From Alphaproteobacteria bacterium (GTDB taxonomy: Bacteria > Pseudomonadota > Alphaproteobacteria > RS24): a stretch of 64,000 bases of DNA. A program made the translations under genes and the position numbers. Shown here one piece after another: positions 1,883 to 43,981 of this stretch (the first letter of the stretch is position 1; each line of letters opens with the position of its first letter). Below the pieces are notes generated by a model, which did not search any database, was not told the origin of the DNA, and saw only the letters and a list, made by a program, of their open reading frames with translations. The stretch spans positions 12,847-76,846 of the forward strand of contig JAQWIP010000102.1 in NCBI GenBank assembly GCA_029248825.1, read 5' to 3'.

Positions 1883-3484
1883 ATGACAAATTCCCCCTCC
1901 AAGTCCGAACGCAAAGGCATGACGCGCGCGCTGATTTCCGTGTCCGATAAAGACGGGATTGTCGATTTCGCAAAACAGCTTGCGGCCAAAGGGGTCGAGC
2001 TGGTCTCGACGGGCGGCACGGCCAAGTTATTGCAAGAAGCCGGTCTGGCGTGTCGCGATGTCTCGGAGCTGACGGGGTTTCCAGAGATGATGGATGGCCG
2101 CGTCAAAACCCTCCACCCGAAGGTTCACGGCGGGCTTTTGGCCATTCGTGAGAATGAGGCACATCAAAGCTCGATGCATGAACATGACATTCTGGCGATT
2201 GATTTGCTGGTGGTGAACCTTTACCCGTTTGAGGCCACGGTGGCGGCTGGCGGCGATTATGCGAGCTGCATTGAGAATATTGATATCGGCGGGCCCGCGA
2301 TGATCCGCGCGGCGGCGAAAAACCATAATGATGTCGCGGTTTTGGTCGATAATGAAGATTATGACGAAGTGCTGGCGGCACTCGATGCGGGCGGCACGGA
2401 TTTGTCTTTGCGCCAGCGCTTGGCGCAAAAAGCCTATGCCCGCACGGGCGCCTATGACGCCGCGATTTCCAATTGGATGGCCGCGCAACTCGAAATTGAC
2501 ATGCCGCCCTACCGTGCGGTTGGCGGCAAATTGCAACAGGCTTTGCGCTATGGCGAAAACCCGCATCAGCAAGCTGGCTTTTATGTTGGCGATACGCCGC
2601 GCATTGGTGTCGCCACCGCCGAGCAAGTGCAAGGCAAAGCGCTGTCGTATAATAATATCAATGACACAGATGCCGCGTTTGAATTGGTCGCCGAATTCGA
2701 CCCCGCCCAAACCGCGGCTTGCGCCATCATCAAACACGCCAATCCTTGCGGCGTCGCTACGGGCGCCACATTGTCCGAGGCTTTTGCCAAAGCGTTGCGT
2801 TGCGATCCGGTTTCGGCTTTTGGCGGCATTATCGCCATGAACCAAACCCTCGATGCCGCCACGGCCACCGCGATTACCGAGATTTTCACCGAAGTGATTA
2901 TCGCGCCAGACGCCGATGCGGCGGCGCGCGAGGTGATTGCGAAAAAGAAGAACTTGCGCTTGCTGATTACCGGCGGCCTTCCTGTGGCCGATGCCGCAGG
3001 GCTTTCGCTGCGCAATGTTGCGGGCGGCTATTTGGTGCAAAATCGCGACAATGGCCATATTGGCGAGGCGGATTTAACCTGCGTCACCAAGCGCCAACCC
3101 AGCGCCCGAGAGCTGGCCGACTTATTGTTTGCTTGGCGCGTTGCCAAACATGTGAAGTCCAATGCGATTGTCTATGTAAAAGATGGCGCCACTGTGGGCG
3201 TGGGCGCAGGGCAAATGAGCCGCCTCGACAGCTCGCGCATTGCCGCGCGCAAAAGCCAAGATGCCGCCGAAGCTTGTGGGGCAGACGCGCCCCTCGCTAA
3301 AGGCTCGGTTGTCGCCTCGGATGCTTTCTTCCCGTTCGCGGATGGTCTGCTAAATGCGGCCGAAGCGGGTGCGACAGCCGTCATCCAGCCCGGTGGCTCC
3401 ATTCGCGACGATGACGTCATTGCCGCCGCCGATGAAGCGGGATTGGCCATGATGTTTACCGGCATGCGCCATTTCCGACACTAA
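1883..3484 (+). CDS. purH: bifunctional AICAR transformylase / IMP cyclohydrolase
   Basis: Motifs [47 protein letters not shown] and C-terminal MRHFRH. AGGA lies 7 nt upstream of the ATG. An alternative ATG is at 1919. Confidence 0.97.
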
Positions 3485-3493
3485 TCGAGCGGC

Positions 3494-5800
3494 TTAGCCA
3501 CACGCGTTTTTTGTGGTGTTTTGCCAGTCCTGCAAAATGGGAAACGCGAGAACCGCTTCGCGCCAATTGGCTTGCGCTTGCGTGCGCGAGAAGATTTTGT
3601 CTTGCATGGCACAGGCCTGCTGTTTGCGCTCTAGCTCGATGAAGATAGCCGCCAGCCCCAGCCGCGCGCCCATGCCGACGGGGTCATCGGCGGGCGTGCG
3701 CCGCGCCAAAGACGACAAAGCGCGCGCCGCTTCTAGGCCGCGTGCATTGGCTTGCAAAGTGGCGGCGCGCAAAAACCAAGCCGAGGGGCGGCGAGGAAAT
3801 TCGCTGGCCAATTTTTCGGCCAATGCCAAAGCCGCTTCGGGCTGCTCGCGGGTTAAATCGAAATCAATCAACGTCTCTAATAACACCGCGCGGGGGCGCC
3901 CTTGCAGGGTCTCCAAATCGCTGGTCAGCCAGACATACTGCGTGGCGAGGCGCGCTTTGGTTTCTGGTTTTTTGAGATAGGCTTTCCAATGCGCCAACAT
4001 ATGAGCGGCGGCGGCATCCTCTTGTGTCTCCAGCAGTGAGCTCAATCTTTCGCTATCTTTTTGCGCCACCAGATAGGATAAAGCGCGCGGCACCAAGGGG
4101 CGAATATCGCCGCCCGCCTCGACAAAACTCCCCCAGGCCGAGCCAAATTTAGGGCTGCTCAATTCTCCGCTCAAGGCAATTTCAATGCCCGCACGATGCA
4201 CCGCCAAAGGGTCTCCCGCAATACATCCGGGCGGGCATTCGACGCGCGTCCATAATTGATACAGCGTCATGGCTCCGCGCGCGCTGGCCGATATTTCGGC
4301 AGGGCTTTCGGTTTTGCGCCGCGCCTTTATCGCCTCGCCAAGCAAGCGCACGCGCATGCCCAAAAACAATCGATAGGCCGGCGTGTCGGGGCCAATGCCG
4401 GTGAGAATTTTATCGGCCTCCGCCCAGTTTTTGCGAGCGGTGGCATCGCGCGCCAAAACCACGCGCGCGCGCATCGCCAATAAAACATCCAAGGAGGGCG
4501 GCGGCGGGGTTGTCGCGGTGTCTGTGGAAATCGCTTGGGCGGGAATGGCGACCCCTTGGAAAGCGCGCGCCAGCGTCAGCATGGCCGCATCGGGTTTTTT
4601 GTCGACGGATAATTGCGCCAAAGCGATTAATTTATTTAATCGTAAGGCCGTTTCGCTGGTCTCTGGCAGAGCGTCTTGCGCCGAGCGAAGATGCGTGATC
4701 GCCAATTTATAGTCGCCCAAATTCAGCCGCGCCACGCCCATATGATAATCGACCCGCCGCTTGAGACCCGTTGGCATATGCGAATGGAAAGCTTTCATGC
4801 CCGGCCAAGCGGCCAAAATCTGTCCGTATTTTTGCGCCGCAAAAGCCTGCCGCATCCCCCGCAAAGAAAGGCCAGGTTCATAATCCATAGCATCGAGCAG
4901 CAATTGATCGCGCGCGACTAAATCCAACGCCGCTTTGAGGTTTTGCCCATCGCCTTGAAAGGCGGGGCGCAAGAGCGCGACAATCTCATAGGCCGGGCGC
5001 GTCTCGCGCATCGCTTGGCGCGCCAAATTCACCGCATCGCCGCTGGCAATCAAGCTTGAGCGAGGCGCCGCCTCAGAGGTTTGTGTGTCGAATAAAGCCA
5101 CGGGAGGGCGATAGTCTGGCGCGCTTATTCGCGCATAAAAATCGTCGACCGCACGGATAAAGCTCGGCGCGCCGCCCCGCTTTAGAGACTGTTGCAAACG
5201 CTGCAAAGTCGAGGTCGCCGTGGTTAAATCCCCTGCCTCAATTTGCGTGGTCGCCAAACCATACATGGCGCGTTGCACCAGCACGGGATGTTTAAATTCA
5301 AAGGTTAGGCCTTGCATCGCCTTGAGCGCGCCTTGCATGGCCTCGGCTTTTTCTTGCGCCGAAATATGGCGCACGGCGGCGGCCAATTGCCCCCAAGCCA
5401 CGCCATAAGCGCTCGCCACGCGCAGGCTTTCAATATCGCCCCATAAATCGGAGGACAGTAATTCTTCAAACGACAATTCATTATGGCGCACATTATCTTC
5501 GGCCCGTTTTCGCAACGCCGCCATAGTGTCCGAGACTTGGCTGGCTTGGCGCACGAAAGGCGCCAGCTCCAGAGGCCCAAAAGCGCTGTCATAACAAGCT
5601 TCCATGCCGATGGAATATTTATCCGTCGCCGCCAGATAGGGCGCGCTATTTTCGCTCAAAGCGGCCAGAATTTTTTCTGGCGTTTGGGTCAATAAGGCCG
5701 GCGGCGCCTCGCACGCGCGCACAGCGCTTGGCTCAAAACTCGCCAGAGCAACAAGCCAGACAGCCAACAAGGGTGCGCGCCAATATCGAATTAAAAACAT
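3494..5800 (-). CDS. large secreted alpha-helical (TPR-like?) protein of unknown function, last gene of the exbBD operon
   Basis: 768 aa. N-terminal signal peptide MFLIRYWRAPLLAVWLVALASFEPSAVRA. Long Ala/Leu-rich helical sequence with no catalytic motif recognised. Starts 8 nt after the VWA gene stop. Confidence 0.6.
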   Translation of the reverse strand: MFLIRYWRAPLLAVWLVALASFEPSAVRACEAPPALLTQTPEKILAALSENSAPYLAATDKYSIGMEACYDSAFGPLELAPFVRQASQVSDTMAALRKRAEDNVRHNELSFEELLSSDLWGDIESLRVASAYGVAWGQLAAAVRHISAQEKAEAMQGALKAMQGLTFEFKHPVLVQRAMYGLATTQIEAGDLTTATSTLQRLQQSLKRGGAPSFIRAVDDFYARISAPDYRPPVALFDTQTSEAAPRSSLIASGDAVNLARQAMRETRPAYEIVALLRPAFQGDGQNLKAALDLVARDQLLLDAMDYEPGLSLRGMRQAFAAQKYGQILAAWPGMKAFHSHMPTGLKRRVDYHMGVARLNLGDYKLAITHLRSAQDALPETSETALRLNKLIALAQLSVDKKPDAAMLTLARAFQGVAIPAQAISTDTATTPPPPSLDVLLAMRARVVLARDATARKNWAEADKILTGIGPDTPAYRLFLGMRVRLLGEAIKARRKTESPAEISASARGAMTLYQLWTRVECPPGCIAGDPLAVHRAGIEIALSGELSSPKFGSAWGSFVEAGGDIRPLVPRALSYLVAQKDSERLSSLLETQEDAAAAHMLAHWKAYLKKPETKARLATQYVWLTSDLETLQGRPRAVLLETLIDFDLTREQPEAALALAEKLASEFPRRPSAWFLRAATLQANARGLEAARALSSLARRTPADDPVGMGARLGLAAIFIELERKQQACAMQDKIFSRTQAQANWREAVLAFPILQDWQNTTKNACG

Positions 5801-5808
5801 CCCCGCCC

Positions 5809-6960
5809 CTATTCCAAATTGGCCAAGAAAGGCGCCAGCTCATCGTGAAACTTATCGTCGAAAATAAGCAGCGCCAAGGTTTTCATCAATTGGCGCTCAG
5901 CCGCCAAAGTCGCCGCTGTGCCGCCGCCCAAACGAGCCAATCTTTTAAATTGCGGCATCGTGCCTTGCTTTAATAAATCCGCGCGCCCCGACGTTTTGGC
6001 GCGCGCCCGACCCAACATTGCCCGATTGGCCTCGACGCGACTGTCGAGCAAAGAAAGCCGTCCGCCACGCGATTTCAACCGTTCGGCAATCTGTGCCGCT
6101 TCACCCGCCTCACGCGAATGCGGGGGCGCATCGCCAATGACAATCACCACGCGTTGCGCGCCCGGTCGCCACGCGATTTTGGTTTCCGCGTCGCGCAAGG
6201 CTTGGGTTACCGCTTCTGGATAATCGCCGCCGCCGACCGCATCAATGGCCGCAATGAAATCGCGCGATTTCACAATGTCAAAACTCGGCTGGGTGATGCG
6301 GGTGACAAACTCCAAATCATTATAATCGCGATAGGCGATAATGCCGAAGCGCGCCAAAGGCACGAGGTTGCGAATGTAAGTCGCCAATTGTTCCATCCGC
6401 TGATGAACTTTTTTATGCACCCAAACCATCGACCCCGTCGCATCAATGGCAAAAACCACATCAATTCCGGTCTTTTGCAAATGCTCAATATAATCGGCGA
6501 AAGTTTGCGGCACGCCCGAGATTAGCCCGCCGCCCGGAAGCGCGCGTTGGGTAACCGCCGCTGCGGGCAAAGGCATGGCAGGCGCGATGGCCGCCATATT
6601 GGCATTGTCCATCATCAAGTCATTGAAATCTGTATCGAGCGGCACTTCGAGAAGCTCGGATAAATCGAGATTTGCTTCCGCTTCGCGAAAATCTTCCGGC
6701 GGCGCCTGCGTGTCCAGCGTCAAATCCAGCTCTTCTGGCCCCGCTTCGCCCGCCGAAATGACCACGCTATCTTGCTCTGCCCCGCTGCCGCGCTCGCCGC
6801 CAAATAGCAACAGCAACACAAAGCCCACCGCGATGACATGCAAGACCACCGAGCCAACCAAAAGCCCAATCCAGACGCGGCGCGGCACCGCAATCAGGCG
6901 GGCGCGCAATTGGCCAAACCAGCCGCTTTTCTGGGTATTTGGGGCTGAGTTCGCGCTCAT
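5809..6960 (-). CDS. membrane-anchored von Willebrand factor A (VWA) domain protein with a TonB-like N-terminal anchor
   Basis: 383 aa. RR + TM helix RRVWIGLLVGSVVLHVIAVGFVLLLLF with Ser37/His41 spaced as in the TonB SxxxH anchor. Acidic/Pro linker. VWA-type motif DVVFAIDATGSM (residues ~166-180) and VVIVIGDAPPH. The ATG overlaps the exbD2 stop (ATGA). Confidence 0.7.
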   Translation of the reverse strand: MSANSAPNTQKSGWFGQLRARLIAVPRRVWIGLLVGSVVLHVIAVGFVLLLLFGGERGSGAEQDSVVISAGEAGPEELDLTLDTQAPPEDFREAEANLDLSELLEVPLDTDFNDLMMDNANMAAIAPAMPLPAAAVTQRALPGGGLISGVPQTFADYIEHLQKTGIDVVFAIDATGSMVWVHKKVHQRMEQLATYIRNLVPLARFGIIAYRDYNDLEFVTRITQPSFDIVKSRDFIAAIDAVGGGDYPEAVTQALRDAETKIAWRPGAQRVVIVIGDAPPHSREAGEAAQIAERLKSRGGRLSLLDSRVEANRAMLGRARAKTSGRADLLKQGTMPQFKRLARLGGGTAATLAAERQLMKTLALLIFDDKFHDELAPFLANLE

Positions 6961-7370
6961 TGTGCGGCTCCCTCATATTGCGTTTTCAGGCGAATTTCGC
7001 CCACCCCCGCTTTGGCCATGGCGGCGCGAAAAGCCAAAAGCGGTTTCGCATGGGCGCGCCGGTCGGCAATCAGCTCGACGGGCAAGCCTTGCTCGACAAT
7101 TCCCGCTGATTTCACATAATCCGCCAATTCGCCCAAAGTAACGCTTTCGCCTTCGGATAAATAAAACATGTCATCTTGTTTCAACCAGACGGCAAAGGCC
7201 GCGCCTGTGTATTCACTGTCTTGGGTGGAGGTCGCCACTTCGATTTGCTGCGGATGATTGGTCGTCGGGCGTCCCGCGATCAGCACAAATAAGATGAGCA
7301 GAAACACCACATTGATGAGCGGCAGCAAATCGATGGATTTTATTTCACGGCGTTGGCGATTGATTTTCAT
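6957..7370 (-). CDS. exbD: biopolymer transport protein ExbD/TolR (second copy)
   Basis: Start trimmed to MKINRQRREIKSIDLLPLINVVFLLILFVL, a typical ExbD N-terminus with single TM. The ORF-track extension 7371-7589 overlaps the upstream exbD. Confidence 0.85.
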   Translation of the reverse strand: MKINRQRREIKSIDLLPLINVVFLLILFVLIAGRPTTNHPQQIEVATSTQDSEYTGAAFAVWLKQDDMFYLSEGESVTLGELADYVKSAGIVEQGLPVELIADRRAHAKPLLAFRAAMAKAGVGEIRLKTQYEGAAQ

Positions 7371-7383
7371 AAGGCCCCAGCGC

Positions 7384-7821
7384 TCAAAAATCGGCCAGAT
7401 CAATATCAAATACATCGCGCTCCAAAGTGATGGAGGCTGCGCCCGCCTCCACCAAGAGGTCGAGCGTATCGGATATTTTTTGAACTTCTGCCGCGCCCGC
7501 CGGCATAAGCACGACAAGTTGGTCGTCGTGGCGCGCCACCAAAGCGGCGACATCTTGCGCCAGTTTTTCAGAGCTGACGGGCGCCCCATTCCAGTGCAAT
7601 TTGCCCGCTTCGCTAAGCGTCACAATCGCAGGCTGGCTGGCACTCTCGCTGCCGCCAGTGCCGCGCGGCGGCGCCAGACGGCTTTGGCCATAGCTGACAA
7701 AATCAGAGCCGAGCAGAAAAAACAGCAGCAATAGAAAAATCATATCGATGAGCGGGGTTAGCCCCATCATCGGATTTTTGCGCCGCGCGCGGGTGATTTG
7801 AAGGGCTTGCGACATCAGCAA
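7384..7821 (-). CDS. exbD: biopolymer transport protein ExbD/TolR (first copy)
   Basis: 145 aa with RRKNPMMGLTPLIDMIFLLLLFFLL anchor motif. Begins 8 nt after the exbB stop. Confidence 0.88.
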   Translation of the reverse strand: MLMSQALQITRARRKNPMMGLTPLIDMIFLLLLFFLLGSDFVSYGQSRLAPPRGTGGSESASQPAIVTLSEAGKLHWNGAPVSSEKLAQDVAALVARHDDQLVVLMPAGAAEVQKISDTLDLLVEAGAASITLERDVFDIDLADF

Positions 7822-7829
7822 GGAGCCCC

Positions 7830-8603
7830 TTAGGCTTTCGCCTGACTATCGCTGCGAACCAATATTTCGGTCAGCGCATCTTCCACCGTGTCGCGCACAT
7901 CATCCACCGCATTGTTGAACACAGCGGCGAGGATAGAAAACGGCAAGGCGACCCCAAGCCCGAAAGCGGTTGTCAAAAGAGCTTCCCAAATGCCCGAAGC
8001 CAGCAAAGCCGTATCCGCCCCACTGGAACCTTGGCCGACGCCTTGGAAAGCCACAATCATTCCCAACACGGTTCCCAACAAACCAAACAGCGGGGCGGAG
8101 GCCGCAATAAGTTCGAGAACCCAAATGTTTTTGCTTAAATGGCGAATTAAATATTGCGCCCGTCGGCCTAATTCTTCGCGCAAAATAGTGGCGCTCATCG
8201 TGCGGCCATGGGCTTGGGTAAGCGCATAGCCGATGAGCGGCGCGGCCGGATGGGCATAGGCATCGAGGCGTTTGGCCAGACCGTCAATTTCTCCCGCGCG
8301 ATAATCGGCCAAAGCCGCATCCAATTGTTGCGGGCGATAAATATCCATTTGGTAGAATTGGTAAATTTTAACCCCGGCCACCGGCAAGCCAACCGCCGAT
8401 AAAAGCGCAATGACCCAAGTGACCAAGCCGCCCTTGGAGAATAACAAGCCGAAAAAGCTCGGCGCCTCTTGCGCTACAGCCGTATTTTGCGCCGCGGCCA
8501 CATCTTGCGCCCAGCTTAGCTCGGGCAGCAAAGCCCCCGCCATCATAATTAAGCTCACGCCGGCCCATAGGGAAGCGGATTTCATAACGCCAAGTTTCAA
8601 CAT
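7830..8603 (-). CDS. exbB: MotA/TolQ/ExbB proton-channel protein with N-terminal signal-like extension
   Basis: 257 aa. C-terminal TM pair PLFGLLGTVLGMIVAFQ ... GIWEALLTTAFGLGVALP typical of ExbB/TolQ. N-terminus looks like a signal peptide ending SWAQD. Confidence 0.88.
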   Translation of the reverse strand: MLKLGVMKSASLWAGVSLIMMAGALLPELSWAQDVAAAQNTAVAQEAPSFFGLLFSKGGLVTWVIALLSAVGLPVAGVKIYQFYQMDIYRPQQLDAALADYRAGEIDGLAKRLDAYAHPAAPLIGYALTQAHGRTMSATILREELGRRAQYLIRHLSKNIWVLELIAASAPLFGLLGTVLGMIVAFQGVGQGSSGADTALLASGIWEALLTTAFGLGVALPFSILAAVFNNAVDDVRDTVEDALTEILVRSDSQAKA

Positions 8604-8635: not shown

Positions 8636-8675
8636 ATGAAAAAACGCCGCCAGTAAAAATTGGCGGCGTTTTCAT
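8636..8675 (-). terminator. rho-independent terminator downstream of the acyl-CoA dehydrogenase gene
   Basis: Perfect 10-bp stem AACGCCGCCA (8643-8652) / TGGCGGCGTT (8661-8670) with an 8-nt loop. On the minus-strand transcript the stem is followed by a U-run. Confidence 0.8.
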
Positions 8676-8694: not shown

Positions 8695-9849
8695 CTAGAG
8701 CGCGCGCGCAACCAGCATCCGCATAATCTCGTTCGAGCCACCATAAATCCGCTGCACGCGCGCATCGGTATACATGCGGCTGATCGGGTATTCATCCATA
8801 TAGCCATAGCCGCCGAAGAATTGCAGGCAATCATCGATGACTTCGTTTTCGCGTTCGGTACACCAAAATTTCGCCGCCGCCGCACTATTGGCATCCAGCT
8901 CGCCTTCCAGCAATTGCGCCGTCAATTGGTCTACCATGGCCCGCGCCGCCATCCATGTGGCTTTGCATTCGGCCAATTTATATTGCGTGTTTTGGTAATC
9001 AAAAATCGAATTGCCAAAAGTTTTGCGCTCGCGCGTGTAATCTAGCGTCAGCTCAATCGCGCGCTCCATAGAGGCCACCGCCTGATTGGCAATCACCAAA
9101 CGCTCGGCTGGCAATTGCTGCATCAATTGGAAAAAGCCTTGGCCTTCCTCGCCGCCCAAAATATTATCGGCTGGCACTTTCACCTCATCGAAAAACAACT
9201 CCGATGTATCGGCCGCATGTTGACCCATTTTTTCGAGGTTGCGACCGCGCGCAAACCCTTGTGTGTCGTCATTTGTTTCGACAATCACCAGCGAAATGCC
9301 TTTGGCGCCTTGCGACGTGTCGGTCTTGGCAACCACCAAAACGATGTCGGCGGTTTGGCCGTTGGTGATGAAAGTTTTCGAGCCATTCACCACATATTGA
9401 TTGCCGTCTTTGACGGCGGTGGTTTTGACCGATTGCAAATCAGAACCGGTTCCAGGCTCGGTCATGGCGATGCCACAAATCAATTCGCCCGAAGCCATTT
9501 TGGGCAGATATTTTTTCTTCTGCTCTTCCGTGCCATAGGACAAGAAATAATGCGAGCAGATGAGCGAGTGAACCGACTGGCCCCAGCCCGCCACACCGAG
9601 GCGCGTTTGCACTTCGGTGAGAATGGCTTCATGGCGATAGTCGCCGCCGCCGCCGCCATATTCTTCTGGAATCGACGTGCATAAAAGCCCAGCCGCGCCC
9701 GCTTTCGTCCACGCATCGCGGTCAACAATGCCTTGTTTCGTCCATTTGTCGGCCAAAGGCACGAATTCATTGGTCATGAATTTACGCGCCGCATCTTCAA
9801 AGATGGTGAGGTCTTCTGTCATCCAAGGGGATGTGTAATTTCCAAGCAT
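8695..9849 (-). CDS. acyl-CoA dehydrogenase
   Basis: 384 aa. MTEPGTGSDLQS, C-terminal RIYGGSNEIMRMLVAR and the overall ACAD pattern. Confidence 0.9.
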   Translation of the reverse strand: MLGNYTSPWMTEDLTIFEDAARKFMTNEFVPLADKWTKQGIVDRDAWTKAGAAGLLCTSIPEEYGGGGGDYRHEAILTEVQTRLGVAGWGQSVHSLICSHYFLSYGTEEQKKKYLPKMASGELICGIAMTEPGTGSDLQSVKTTAVKDGNQYVVNGSKTFITNGQTADIVLVVAKTDTSQGAKGISLVIVETNDDTQGFARGRNLEKMGQHAADTSELFFDEVKVPADNILGGEEGQGFFQLMQQLPAERLVIANQAVASMERAIELTLDYTRERKTFGNSIFDYQNTQYKLAECKATWMAARAMVDQLTAQLLEGELDANSAAAAKFWCTERENEVIDDCLQFFGGYGYMDEYPISRMYTDARVQRIYGGSNEIMRMLVARAL

Positions 9850-9942
9850 GTTTTGCTCCCATTTATATCTGGCAAGATGTTAGCCATAGAGAGGCGGCAC
9901 GCGCAAGCTTGTTCCCCTGCGACATTTATGGCGCAAGACAGC

Positions 9943-11103
9943 TTAAAGCTGCATGGCTTTATGATAGCCGCCAAGCCTCACGCGACCAATCATTTCATAA
10001 GTCGCGGCATTGGCAATCATATGTTGGGTCATGGTTTCGCTATCGCGCAACCGCCGCTGGATGGCACTGGTTTTATAAACCGATGTGCCGCCCGCCAAAT
10101 CATGCATTTGGCGCACCACTTGCACACAAACGCGCACCGCATGGGTCGATATCAGCCGCAAATCGGCGCGTTGTTCCGGTGTTATCGCGTGGCCGCCTTC
10201 GACAGCATCCCAAGTGTCGCGCAACGTCTGCCAATAAAACGCATCGGCGCTGCGCCATAAAGCTTCGGCCTCGGCCAAACTGGCTTGCACGCTACTGCGC
10301 TCGGCCAAGGTGCGCGAATTGCCCATCGGGGTTTTGGCCATGGCCAATTCAATGAAATCATCCAACGCCGCGCGCGCATTGCCCAAAGCCACGGCGCCGA
10401 CACCCGTCGCCAAAAATCCGAAATAGGGCATTTTATATAGCGGGTCTTGCGTCCACGGCGTATCCGTCGCAATCGAATAACTATGCGCCACTGGCACGCG
10501 AATTTGATCCACTTCGACATCGCCCGAGCTGGTGCCGCAAAGCCCCATCGTATGCCAAGTGTCGTGAAAAATAACTTGCTCGCGCGGGATCATCAAAAGC
10601 CGCACGCTTGGTTTTTCGTCCTCGGGCGCTTGCGCCAAACAGCCAAGCCCAAGGTAATCGGCATTGGCCGACCCTGACGCCCAAGCCCATCGCCCCGAAA
10701 CGATATAGTCATCGCCATCTTGCAGGGCGCGTCCATTGGGCGCGAAAATGCCACAGGTAATGCGGCTCGGACTGGCGAACATTTCTTGGCTAGTGTCGGG
10801 CTTAATGAAGGCCGACCCGAGAGCCGCCGTGGCGCCAATCATACTGACCCACGCGCTGGCCGCATCATGCATGGCGAGAACTTGCAGCCGCGCATTGCCT
10901 TCGAGTGGCGTCAATTGAGCGCCCCCAATATCTTTTGGCACAAACATAGAGAACATGCCCGCATCGGCCAATTGGCGCGCCAACTCGGGTGCCAAAGCGC
11001 GCGCGGCCTCGGTGGCCTCGGCGCTGGTTTTCGCGGCGGCGCAAACCGTGGCAAATTTTTTGTCTTTTTTAAACTCTACTTGTTTATCGGCTCGCGCGCG
11101 CAT
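9943..11103 (-). CDS. acyl-CoA dehydrogenase-fold flavoprotein (type-2 ACAD / monooxygenase-like)
   Basis: Start trimmed to MRARADK (ATG 11101-11103). ELARQLADAGMFSMFVPKDIGGAQL, WASGS and a C-terminal four-helix region are typical of the ACAD type-2 family. Confidence 0.65.
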   Translation of the reverse strand: MRARADKQVEFKKDKKFATVCAAAKTSAEATEAARALAPELARQLADAGMFSMFVPKDIGGAQLTPLEGNARLQVLAMHDAASAWVSMIGATAALGSAFIKPDTSQEMFASPSRITCGIFAPNGRALQDGDDYIVSGRWAWASGSANADYLGLGCLAQAPEDEKPSVRLLMIPREQVIFHDTWHTMGLCGTSSGDVEVDQIRVPVAHSYSIATDTPWTQDPLYKMPYFGFLATGVGAVALGNARAALDDFIELAMAKTPMGNSRTLAERSSVQASLAEAEALWRSADAFYWQTLRDTWDAVEGGHAITPEQRADLRLISTHAVRVCVQVVRQMHDLAGGTSVYKTSAIQRRLRDSETMTQHMIANAATYEMIGRVRLGGYHKAMQL

Positions 11104-11172
11104 GGTCGCCTCTCCTTGTCTTCGATGTCGGGTTCGATAAGTTTGTCGAAAAACCAAAACCAACGCAACCCG

Positions 11173-42530: not shown

Positions 42531-43589
42531 CTATCCTTGTCGAACCAGTTCGATTAATTTTTGCACATTCTCCGGTGGCGTTTGCGGCACAATGCCATGA
42601 CCGAGATTGAAAATATAATCGCGCCCTGCAAAATCATTTTTAATGTCTGCCACGGCTTGCTCTAGAGCCGCGCCACCCGCTACCAAAGTTAAAGGGTCGA
42701 GATTGCCTTGCAAGACGATGTTTTCTGGCACGTTTTGCACCATCGCTTTTCTATCGGCGCTTGTGTCTAGCCCCAAAACTTGCACGCCTGTGCGCGCCAC
42801 ATAGTCAGCCATGTCGCAGCTGGCAGCGCGGGGAAACCCAATGATGGGAACGCCGACACCGCGCGCGCGCAAACCTTCCACAATGGCCGCCACGGGTTCC
42901 ACGCACCACATATCAAACGCCTCGCCGTGCAAAGACGCCGCCCAACTTTCAAATAATTGCAATACTTCGGCACCCGCCTCGACTTGTGCCGCCAAATAAT
43001 CAATCGTCGCCGCCACAATAATATCCATCAGACCTTGAAAGGCTTGCGGATCGCTTTGCGCCAGGGCGCGCGCAGGCGCTTGGTCGGGCGTGCCGCGCCC
43101 CGCCACCATATAGGTCGCTACCGTCCAAGGCGCACCAGCAAACCCGATGAGTGTGGTTTCCTTGGGCAAAGAATGAGACAAGCGAGACACGGTTTCAATA
43201 ATCGGCTCTAAATGCTCGCTCACGTTATCCAGCGATAAGCTTTGCGCCGACACCACCGGATCCAAACGCGGGCCCTCTCCGGTTTCAAACCAGACTTTCT
43301 GGCCGAGGGCATCGGGGATAAGTAAAATATCGGCAAATAAAATCGCTGCATCAAAACCATATCGTCGAATGGGCTGCAAGGTCACTTCTTCGGCGAAGAC
43401 TGGATTATAGCAAAGGTCTAAAAACCCGCCGGCGGTTTCGCGAAGCGCGCGATATTCAGGCAAATACCGGCCCGCTTGGCGCATCAGCCAAATCGGTGGC
43501 ACTGGTTGACTATCGGTTGGCTTTGTCTTGCTTGTCCCATCTTTGGCGGCTGCGCCAGAGAGGGTTTTTAAAAATAGTTTCATACTCAT
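42531..43589 (-). CDS. hemE: uroporphyrinogen decarboxylase
   Basis: PIWLMRQAGRYLPEY, ILFADILL, FNLGHGI. Confidence 0.96.
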   Translation of the reverse strand: MSMKLFLKTLSGAAAKDGTSKTKPTDSQPVPPIWLMRQAGRYLPEYRALRETAGGFLDLCYNPVFAEEVTLQPIRRYGFDAAILFADILLIPDALGQKVWFETGEGPRLDPVVSAQSLSLDNVSEHLEPIIETVSRLSHSLPKETTLIGFAGAPWTVATYMVAGRGTPDQAPARALAQSDPQAFQGLMDIIVAATIDYLAAQVEAGAEVLQLFESWAASLHGEAFDMWCVEPVAAIVEGLRARGVGVPIIGFPRAASCDMADYVARTGVQVLGLDTSADRKAMVQNVPENIVLQGNLDPLTLVAGGAALEQAVADIKNDFAGRDYIFNLGHGIVPQTPPENVQKLIELVRQG

Positions 43590-43658: not shown

Positions 43659-43667
43659 TGTGGATTA
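43659..43667 (-). promoter_or_regulatory. DnaA-box-like 9-mer TAATCCACA
   Basis: One mismatch to TTATCCACA. Confidence 0.5.
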
Positions 43668-43724
43668 CTTATTTCGCGCCAATCCATAAACAAGCAAAAT
43701 CAAAACGAATAGGCATGTGAACAA

Positions 43725-43733
43725 CGGGGATAA
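43725..43733 (-). promoter_or_regulatory. DnaA-box-like 9-mer TTATCCCCG
   Basis: Two mismatches to TTATCCACA. Confidence 0.35.
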
Positions 43734-43744
43734 GCTTTTCGCCC

Positions 43745-43753
43745 TGTGGACAG
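43745..43753 (-). promoter_or_regulatory. DnaA-box-like 9-mer CTGTCCACA
   Basis: Two mismatches to TTATCCACA; the TCCACA core is retained. Confidence 0.4.
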
Positions 43754-43809
43754 ACAATGTTTTTTGAGCGCTCGCTTGCAAAATACAGAGCTGTGAATAA
43801 TACGGACAA

Positions 43810-43818
43810 TGGGGATAA
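43810..43818 (-). promoter_or_regulatory. DnaA-box-like 9-mer TTATCCCCA
   Basis: One mismatch to TTATCCACA. Forms an inverted pair with 43844-43852. Confidence 0.5.
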
Positions 43819-43843
43819 AGGCTCGCGCGAGGCCGCGCATAAT

Positions 43844-43852
43844 TTATCCCCA
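43844..43852 (+). promoter_or_regulatory. DnaA-box-like 9-mer TTATCCCCA
   Basis: One mismatch to TTATCCACA. Inverted partner of 43810-43818; the pair flanks the palindrome CTCGCGCGAG. Confidence 0.5.
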
Positions 43853-43954
43853 AAACCCCCAAACATAGAAATCGATTTATTAAATCGCCTCAAACTCGGG
43901 GTATGAAAAATTAACAGTGGGGAGAAAATTTCTTGGCTTGCCGCGCGGTGCGAC

Positions 43955-43963
43955 TTATCCTCA
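43955..43963 (+). promoter_or_regulatory. DnaA-box-like 9-mer TTATCCTCA
   Basis: One mismatch to TTATCCACA. Confidence 0.45.
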
Positions 43964-43972
43964 CTATTCACA

Positions 43973-43981
43973 TAATCCACA
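43973..43981 (+). promoter_or_regulatory. DnaA-box-like 9-mer TAATCCACA
   Basis: One mismatch to TTATCCACA. Confidence 0.5.

Follow-up and report, generated by a model that had tools for sequence, protein, structure and literature searches.

A probable TonB/Tol-type motor operon with a VWA-domain protein in the position of TonB in an alphaproteobacterium

Organization of the locus

The DNA analysed here, referred to as the window, is a 64,000-nucleotide stretch of an Alphaproteobacteria bacterium of lineage RS24 (assembly GCA_029248825.1, contig JAQWIP010000102.1, positions 12,847 to 76,846), and its minus strand carries, at 3494-8603, an ExbB-ExbD-ExbD cluster that continues with a VWA-domain protein instead of TonB. 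Five closely packed open reading frames (ORFs) make up the cluster. They encode, in order, an ExbB/TolQ-like proton-channel subunit of 257 residues (7830-8603; Pfam MotA_ExbB, E 3.6e-25), two ExbD/TolR-like subunits of 145 residues (7384-7821; Pfam ExbD, E 8.4e-22) and 137 residues (6957-7370; Pfam ExbD, E 6.3e-12), a 383-residue protein with a VWA head that resembles a TonB/TolA-like transducer (5809-6960; assigned from Pfam VWA, an AlphaFold2 model and Foldseek), and a predicted periplasmic TPR-like α-solenoid of 768 residues (3494-5800; AlphaFold2 model and Foldseek). The coordinates are those of an earlier sequence-only reading of the same DNA, whose order of five packed genes agrees with the ORFs and with the Pfam matches.

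That reading also gave gene junctions of 8 nucleotides (nt), 13 nt, a 4-nt ATGA overlap and 8 nt, in this order, and they can be read from the sequence as such. The first of them probably needs revision. The exbD1 gene more likely starts at the ATG at 7815 than at the TTG at 7821, because the ATG is 10 nt away from an AAGGGG Shine-Dalgarno-like site and the TTG only 4 nt; the junction would therefore measure 14 nt.

The upstream boundary of the cluster is marked by a strong hairpin with T-runs (8641-8672; 14-bp stem, 7 GC pairs), which sits between exbB and an upstream acyl-CoA dehydrogenase gene and ends the latter. At the opposite side, purH converges on the cluster at 3484. A hairpin and terminator scan showed no strong terminator inside the five-gene cluster. 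This pattern, as read from the DNA, fits a single transcription unit.

The VWA-domain protein

The 383-residue protein matches the Pfam VWA family with an E-value of 1.2e-6 (29.3 bits against a gathering cut-off of 23.8) and VWA_4 with an E-value of 4.4e-6, and has no Pfam match to a TonB_C/TonB_2 or TolA domain at E up to 0.1. Near the N-terminus it has a single transmembrane helix at residues 27-53 (nt 6802-6882; PRRVWIGLLVGSVVLHVIAVGF; hydrophobic stretch VWIGLLVGSVVLHVIAVGFVLLLLF) that bears S37 (nt 6850-6852) and H41 (nt 6838-6840). The AlphaFold2 model, calculated for all 383 residues with 18 homologues, shows three regions of different confidence in the predicted local distance difference test (pLDDT): the helix at 27-53 scores 80-89, residues 55-150 fall below 50, and an α/β domain at 154-382 scores 75-90. 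The middle region (nt 6511-6798) is a disordered and acidic linker, with 19 Asp and Glu, 3 Lys and Arg and 8 Pro in its 95 residues. Just past the membrane it contains the segment SVVISAG (residues 65-71, nt 6748-6768), a conserved run of alternating hydrophobic residues that aligns with similar segments in distant relatives. Its place is that of the TonB strand that pairs with ExbD, the so-called motor box (PMC12204202).

The VWA domain itself spans residues 154-383 (nt 5812-6501). Its metal site, D173-A-T-G-S177 (nt 6430-6444), is intact and conserved, and the third loop has a conserved GGGD-x2-E motif in place of the usual Thr. A Foldseek search against the PDB retrieved BatB (3ibs) as the best match (E 1.9e-8), together with the vWFA domain of LapA, CMG2/anthrax receptor and integrin beta, with a probability of 1.00. 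Both the profile and the structural searches hence bear out the assignment of a VWA domain with a DxTGS site of the metal-ion-dependent adhesion site (MIDAS) type, and the Pfam result agrees with the proposed lack of a TonB C-terminal domain.

The most conserved feature of the family lies in the helix. No substitution of S37 or H41 occurs among 18 Parvibaculales sequences, and both residues, together with D173, are invariant in 40 relatives with identities down to 24%; beyond these, the invariant columns among the 40 sequences are limited to some Gly, Asp, Met and Glu positions within the VWA domain. In a HMMER scan of 1.84 billion proteins, an N-terminal helix was found in 67 of the 73 proteins of 330-460 residues among the best 149 cluster representatives. 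The pattern Ser-x3-His occurs in 58 of these 67 helices, against 8% of shuffled segments. TonB and TolA bind their motors by an SHLS motif, of which Ser-x3-His is the first half. The same motor-binding element is described in PMC12204202.

The operon position and the Ser-x3-His helix would also suit a canonical TonB system whose TonB has diverged strongly and still energizes TonB-dependent receptors. Several features of the window are indeed those of TonB-ExbB-ExbD, including the exbB-exbD-exbD-tonB-TPR type: the ExbB/ExbD motor, the Ser-x3-His helix, a linker able to span the periplasm, the operon position and a TPR gene next in line. Against this, the C-terminal 230 residues fold with high confidence as a VWA domain and not as a TonB C-terminal or TolA domain, the linker is acidic rather than rich in Pro, Lys and Glu, and the ExbB and ExbD proteins lie far below the equivalog cut-offs (see below). 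Furthermore, no TonB-dependent receptor was recognized among the window ORFs, as judged from their starts, ends and lengths without a profile search. We consider this explanation close to refuted.

Many distant relatives of the VWA domain are longer, with 550-700 residues (P0230, P0240, P0250, P0267, P0269, P0279 and others), and have a different architecture within the same VWA subfamily. Their VWA match begins from about residues 230-375, and their N-termini read as FHA-type (e.g. ...LRIGSDPDA...).

The 768-residue protein

The only Pfam matches of the 768-residue protein are sub-threshold ones to TPR. It starts with a signal peptide (residues 1-29, nt 5714-5800), the end of which, AxA|C, is conserved in 28 homologues. 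In the window protein the signal ends with VRAC, and in some homologues the Cys lies 1-3 residues past the AxA site. Lipidation is argued against by the Arg at position -2 (VRAC). The AlphaFold2 model (768 residues, 28 homologues; mean pLDDT 89) consists of 39 helices and no strands, and Foldseek retrieved only superhelical TPR/HAT scaffolds (IFT-A, Ctr9, TTC7B, Ski3 and subunits of APC) and a periplasmic scaffold of the Campylobacter flagellar motor. Because the model is all-helical and its structural matches are of the TPR/HAT type, the protein is predicted to be a periplasmic TPR-like solenoid and not an enzyme. Several cysteines are invariant in the family, as would be expected in a periplasmic protein. 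The sequence-only reading had described a secreted helical protein with no catalytic motif, which holds; the protein is, in addition, of the TPR type that the same reading named as a frequent follower of tonB. Partners of this type are often encoded after tolA as well.

An alignment of the window TPR family with the gammaproteobacterial one by hhalign covers 710 columns (probability 98.9%, E 1.4e-17), so that the homology is full-length. Conservation across the two classes is best at residues 108-140 (nt 5381-5479), which contain the motif E-x3-E-x2-L-x-S-x2-W. The C-terminal part has a weak match to the tol-pal protein YbgF/CpoB (E 8e-4), which lies below the cut-off.

Distribution and conserved linkage

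Close relatives of the VWA protein, with 57-99% identity, come from Parvibaculales, 'Rhodobiaceae' and PS1-clade marine metagenome-assembled genomes, including complete chromosomes of ~1.8 Mb. A search of protein clusters gave >4,700 matches at E up to 1e-10, a count that takes in any VWA-domain protein and overstates the size of the class. A scan with a pattern built from a 12-sequence alignment gave 507 relatives, with one genome per species. The loci of 79 of these relatives and two further loci were examined, 81 in all, of which 32 are from Parvibaculales and 49 from other lineages. The genes were annotated by phmmer with the five window proteins against all ORFs of each locus. Gene maps of high-GC loci were drawn with an ORF choice weighted by GC content at the third codon position and checked with phmmer and Pfam; maps of the longest ORFs were misleading there.

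The order ExbB-ExbD-ExbD-VWA-TPR is found in 30 of the 32 Parvibaculales loci, and the remaining two are truncated or fragmented. The same order occurs in 28 of the 49 loci of other lineages, mainly in Gammaproteobacteria (Haliea, Pseudomonadales, Candidatus Azophilus), where the identity of the VWA protein is 34-43%. The neighbourhood conservation that the sequence-only reading required of related genomes is thus present and extends beyond the Alphaproteobacteria. Outside Parvibaculales, 47 of the 49 loci have the VWA gene next to the TPR gene. More distant relatives, with identities of ~25-30%, combine the same gene families in other orders: VWA-TPR-x-x-ExbB-ExbD-ExbD in locus L082, VWA-ExbB-ExbD-ExbD-TPR in L084, and ...VWA-ExbB-ExbD-ExbD-(cut) in L086. 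Because different phyla keep these gene families together in differing arrangements, the linkage points to a functional unit rather than to inherited synteny, and comparative evidence of this kind indicates that the five genes work together.

Seventeen relatives have the VWA-TPR pair with no ExbB or ExbD gene detected in the fetched locus, some of these loci being cut by a contig end. Some gammaproteobacterial loci (L040, 7959-12588; L065, 7629-12243; L066, 302-7297; also L069, L074, L079 and L081) have the order VWA-TPR-DUF1329, sometimes with DUF1302 upstream, and with ExbB and ExbD not adjoining. The VWA proteins of these loci retain the Ser-x3-His helix, and the loci are reminiscent of orphan TonB paralogues, which rely on a motor from another locus. 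In Myxococcota and one 'Spirochaetales' metagenome-assembled genome (L038, 5885-7503; L062, 5927-7509; L077, L033 and L037), the VWA-TPR pair follows a ~1070-residue MMPL-type transporter and two small proteins, again with no adjacent ExbB or ExbD genes. The small proteins measure ~244 and ~281 residues, are secreted or lipoprotein-like, and have no Pfam match.

The motor subunits

The ExbB protein has an N-terminal extension (residues 1-32, nt 8508-8603) ahead of the usual first transmembrane helix and a MotA_ExbB domain at residues 137-240 (nt 7884-8195). The extension resembles a cleavable signal peptide (...LSWA|QD), as the sequence-only reading had it. The channel motifs LGT178 and WE207ALLTT are present. 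In the NCBIfam collection, ExbB scores 63.9 bits with the exbB model (cut-off 206.2) and 59.7 bits with the tolQ model (cut-off 221), and the ExbD proteins score 29.6 bits with tolR (cut-off 127.3) and <25 bits with the ExbD models (cut-offs >120). All three proteins fall within the broader Pfam families, MotA_ExbB and ExbD. Since ExbB and both ExbDs fall far below the equivalog cut-offs, the motor is classified by sequence as a divergent member of the family that is an orthologue of neither the Ton nor the Tol motor. An anti-phage system of the Zorya type was also considered and rejected for want of PADLOC support: its ZorA profiles matched only weakly and in part, over the shared MotA-like helices (E 0.0015, 15 bits), and nothing matched the other four operon proteins.

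The two ExbD subunits differ at the position of the proton-carrying residue. ExbD1 retains the transmembrane Asp within a PLID motif (D26 as counted from the TTG at 7821, nt 7744-7746, codon checked), and ExbD2 has an Asn in the equivalent PLIN motif (N20, nt 7311-7313). This difference is not confined to the window. Among the 61 alpha- and gammaproteobacterial loci in which both ExbD genes were detected, the window included, ExbD1 has the Asp in all 61 and ExbD2 the Asn in all 61 (58 as PLIN or PMIN by a motif search, and 3 as FMIN by eye). Three more distant loci have Asp in both ExbD copies. A literature search returned nothing relevant on Asp/Asn ExbD heterodimers, and the pairing was likewise not found in PMC12204202. 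The pattern suggests a stator dedicated to this system, a heterodimer in which only one residue carries protons, which would be unusual.

The subfamily-specific Asn of ExbD2 also speaks against a conventional ExbBD pair working for a TonB from another locus. Such a pair is part of another explanation, in which the VWA and TPR proteins act alone, as in Bat systems, beside an unrelated motor. BatB of Bacteroides is the closest solved structure to the VWA domain, the operons of BatA-E (Bacteroides, Leptospira) join membrane-anchored VWA and TPR proteins, as known for the family, and the 17 relatives without a detected motor gene could be read in this way. Bat operons, however, comprise MoxR and DUF58 genes and no motor genes, and no MoxR ATPase or DUF58 gene flanks the cluster. 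We know of no Ser-x3-His helix described for Bat proteins; this most conserved feature of the family would be left unexplained without contact to a motor, and the motor genes accompany the VWA gene in differing orders. A Bat-like pair acting on its own is accordingly very improbable.

Relation to the vWA force transducers

A class of proteins with the same build was described computationally in 2025 as 'vWA force transducers', whose genes sit near a tolQ gene, a pair of tolR genes and one for a TPR protein (Williams-Jones et al., Mol Biol Evol, PMC12204202). The founding example is from Tichowtungia aerotolerans, and members consist of an inner-membrane tether with an SHLS helix, a disordered linker of ~100 residues with a motor box, and a C-terminal VWA domain; AlphaFold3 docks them on the motor via the conserved His (PMC12204202). 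The window protein shares the single N-terminal helix with the Ser/His motif, the disordered linker of ~100 residues and the C-terminal VWA domain, and its neighbours are likewise one tolQ/exbB-like gene, two different tolR/exbD-like genes and one TPR gene. The window system is a new member of this class, as judged from the described features of build and gene neighbourhood. The statement of the sequence-only reading that no system of this kind had been characterized is thus valid for experiments but not for computational description. The literature search found no further papers on the class.

The window system differs from the described members in several respects. The gene order is motor-VWA-TPR in the window and TPR-motor-VWA in the PVC group (PMC12204202), ExbD2 has Asn and not Asp, and the Parvibaculales module stands alone. 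The same paper describes a second vWA family, in which the VWA protein forms the stator dimer, with an Asp in its helix and no Ser/His motif, and which has tolQ only and no tolR/exbD. Membership of that family was rejected, as the window helix has S37 and H41 and no Asp, and two ExbD genes are adjacent.

Gene neighbourhood in other lineages

Outside Parvibaculales, the module is found next to a set of genes for envelope proteins. At least one of MMPL, YCF48, DUF1302 and DUF1329 lies within 8 kb in 43 of the 49 loci, so that the VWA-TPR pair, with or without motor genes, is placed beside or within a DUF1302-DUF1329-BNR(YCF48-like)-RND(MMPL) cluster. In 29 of the 49, DUF1302 is upstream and DUF1329 downstream of the VWA gene. 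Locus L075 reads, by Pfam, MMPL - PSII_BNR/YCF48 - DUF1302 - ExbB - ExbD - ExbD - VWA - TPR - CobW - DUF1329. In the distant relative L086, PSII_BNR - MMPL - DUF1302 adjoins VWA - ExbB - ExbD - ExbD, and a Myxococcota locus reads MMPL - two small proteins - VWA - TPR. A small gammaproteobacterial clade that holds several of the non-Parvibaculales VWA proteins closest to that of the window also has stand-alone modules. A link between the module and the DUF1302, DUF1329, YCF48 and MMPL genes was not found in PMC12204202.

The function of this cluster has been approached by mutant fitness. The DUF1302, DUF1329, BNR and RND families are cofit in several bacteria, and the export of a cell-wall component was proposed (Price et al., 10.1101/072470). 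Pseudomonas putida requires the same four families to grow on Tween 20 and on butyl stearate (Thompson et al., 10.1101/2020.07.04.188060). For DUF1302, an outer-membrane barrel of 18 strands has been predicted, with the LolA-like DUF1329 as its binding partner. The AupA/AupB proteins of alkane uptake in Marinobacter, considered as a possible DUF1302/DUF1329 pair, were discarded; AupA belongs to the FadL family.

Two further observations concern these loci. In 8 of the 49, all gammaproteobacterial (L075, 11375-12358; L039, L043, L047, L060, L063, L070 and L080), the TPR gene is separated from DUF1329 by a gene for a CobW/COG0523-type metal-chaperone GTPase, which may relate to the metal loading of the VWA site. 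The module-adjoining DUF1302 proteins of L075 (3966-6230), L064 (3555-5897) and L086 (4756-6975) have 739-780 residues against the 541 positions of the family model, and the Pfam match of the L075 protein begins only at residue 179. The module-linked DUF1302 proteins may thus carry an extra N-terminal region that could be a docking site.

The proposed export of a cell-wall component is also in line with a role close to that of Tol-Pal, in which the machine would stabilize or remodel the outer membrane and cell wall during growth or division. The logic is that of tolQRA and cpoB, since in TolQ-TolR-TolA with CpoB/YbgF a motor likewise works with a tethered transducer and with a TPR protein of the periplasm, the 768-residue protein has the sub-cut-off YbgF/CpoB match mentioned above, and ExbB scores about equally on the exbB and tolQ models. 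However, none of the 81 loci has tolB or pal next to the module; the window operon is flanked by acyl-CoA dehydrogenase genes and purH. A VWA domain and not TolA domain III forms the head, and CpoB is only about a third as large as the TPR protein. Alphaproteobacteria, moreover, normally carry a separate tol-pal operon. Envelope maintenance of the Tol type is therefore unlikely.

A further explanation is an adhesion or gliding device, in which the motor moves or unmasks an adhesin-like VWA head and the TPR protein serves as the periplasmic scaffold, comparable to Agl and CglB of Myxococcus. VWA domains with a metal site are classic adhesion modules, and the structural matches include the vWFA domain of the LapA adhesin and integrins, as well as the flagellar-motor scaffold found with the TPR protein; a gliding role is suggested in PMC12204202. 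The Agl-Glt system shares with the window a TolQ/TolR-type motor, two different TolR-like subunits and a functional tie to a VWA protein. Yet CglB is an outer-membrane lipoprotein, whereas the window protein is tethered to the inner membrane, and neither Glt-like nor other gliding genes were found in the window or in any locus. The VWA domain sits on ~95 disordered residues that start from the inner membrane, with no encoded route to the surface, its hosts belong to free-living marine lineages with genomes of ~1.8 Mb, and the recurrent neighbours are transport-type genes and not adhesins. An adhesion or gliding role is hence about as improbable as the Tol-type one, or slightly more so, and nothing in the analysis supports in particular the adhesion role that the sequence-only reading named beside assembly; the context of the relatives points to an envelope transport cluster instead.

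Proposed mechanism

These data lead us to propose that the five genes form one TonB/Tol-type envelope machine composed of a proton motor, a VWA transducer and a TPR scaffold, a reading to which we assign a probability of roughly 70% and in which the task of the machine is taken from relatives only. Its core, an ExbB/ExbD motor that is driven by protons and coupled to a VWA protein in the place of TonB, was already put forward from the sequence, and gains support from the lack of a TonB C-terminal domain, from the predicted VWA fold, from the conservation of Ser-x3-His and from the gene linkage. The adhesion or gliding, Tol-like and Bat-like explanations are each less likely than that of a motor coupled to transport.

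In the proposed machine, ExbB would form a pentameric proton channel in the inner membrane with an ExbD1 (Asp)/ExbD2 (Asn) heterodimer inside, as family knowledge suggests. The 383-residue protein would take the role of TonB/TolA, with its helix docked on the exterior of the ExbB pentamer through Ser37 and His41, and with the SVVISAG segment paired as a strand with the periplasmic part of ExbD. The acidic and disordered tether of ~95 residues would span the periplasm and place the VWA head where it could grip a partner via the metal site D173-x-T-x-S177, the contact being completed by an acidic residue of the partner. The flow of protons would thereby exert a pull on the partner held by the head, or let it go. 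The constant adjacency of the two genes suggests the TPR solenoid as the most likely direct partner of the head or as an adaptor to the outer membrane, and residues 108-140 of the TPR protein can be named, speculatively, as candidates for the acidic ligands of the metal site. To judge from the relatives, the energy may be delivered to an outer-membrane or periplasmic step in the transport or assembly of hydrophobic or envelope material, and not to TonB-dependent receptors. Candidate target genes are not encoded next to the operon of the window, where the module stands alone.

Several points weigh against this proposal. Regarding the docking of the helix, only the Ser and His of the TonB SHLS motif are matched, and the Leu and Ser positions are V48 and L52. 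With residues 1-91 as query, phmmer retrieved neither TonB nor TolA from among all PDB chains at E-values up to 10, so that the homology of the helix to TonB/TolA rests on the motif; short helices rarely score in sequence searches. The AlphaFold2 monomer gives no strand at SVVISAG. ExbD2 is devoid of the Asp that every studied stator needs, and with an Asn in this place the motor may work differently or be regulatory. The relatives are all metagenome-assembled, and the gene calls in their loci come from our own ORF and phmmer calling.

Other points concern the task of the machine. The function of the vWA force transducer class is stated as unknown, with no phenotypes reported (PMC12204202). 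None of DUF1302, DUF1329, YCF48 and MMPL is found in the 64-kb window or in the 32 Parvibaculales loci, so that the functional link to the DUF1302/DUF1329 cluster is borrowed from other lineages. Conversely, Shewanella amazonensis, Kangiella aquimarina and Pseudomonas have the four-gene set, clustered or split in two, and no ExbB, ExbD or VWA protein is among its listed members in these bacteria. The module is therefore not an obligate part of the set.

A bolder version of the proposed machine can be formulated, which is conceivable but rather doubtful at present. It would be a third proton-driven energizer across the envelope, beside Ton and Tol, in which an Asp/Asn stator pulls on a metal-dependent VWA 'hand'. 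Acting via the TPR solenoid, this hand would gate or load a route by which hydrophobic or envelope material is transported at the outer membrane. The route would be DUF1302/DUF1329/MMPL in other lineages, and for the window module a partner encoded elsewhere.

Other features of the window

Two genes of the acyl-CoA dehydrogenase family (8695-11163) lie directly upstream of the operon, with the terminator in between. The adjacency is not conserved, as one such gene is present in L002 and none in L001, and it hints at a lipid theme weakly at best.

The window has 14 DnaA-box-like sites (TTATCCACA, ≤1 mismatch), 6 of which are bunched at 43659-43981, in and around a 328-bp gap upstream of hemE (42531-43589), with parAB, rsmG, mnmG, mnmE and rho close by. 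The region, ~35 kb from the operon, is the probable chromosomal origin of replication, comparable to that of Caulobacter.

Implications

The retention of the module in marine genomes of ~1.8 Mb argues for a core function. For the class as a whole, its insertion into the DUF1302/DUF1329/BNR/MMPL cluster provides the first concrete functional lead; this cluster has mutant phenotypes on fatty esters. The Asp/Asn design of the stator is open to test by simple point mutations. In Gram-negative bacteria, Ton and Tol are the two established routes by which a tethered transducer carries energy from the inner membrane to the outer membrane. A widespread third transducer with a different 'hand' would, if true, extend this picture.

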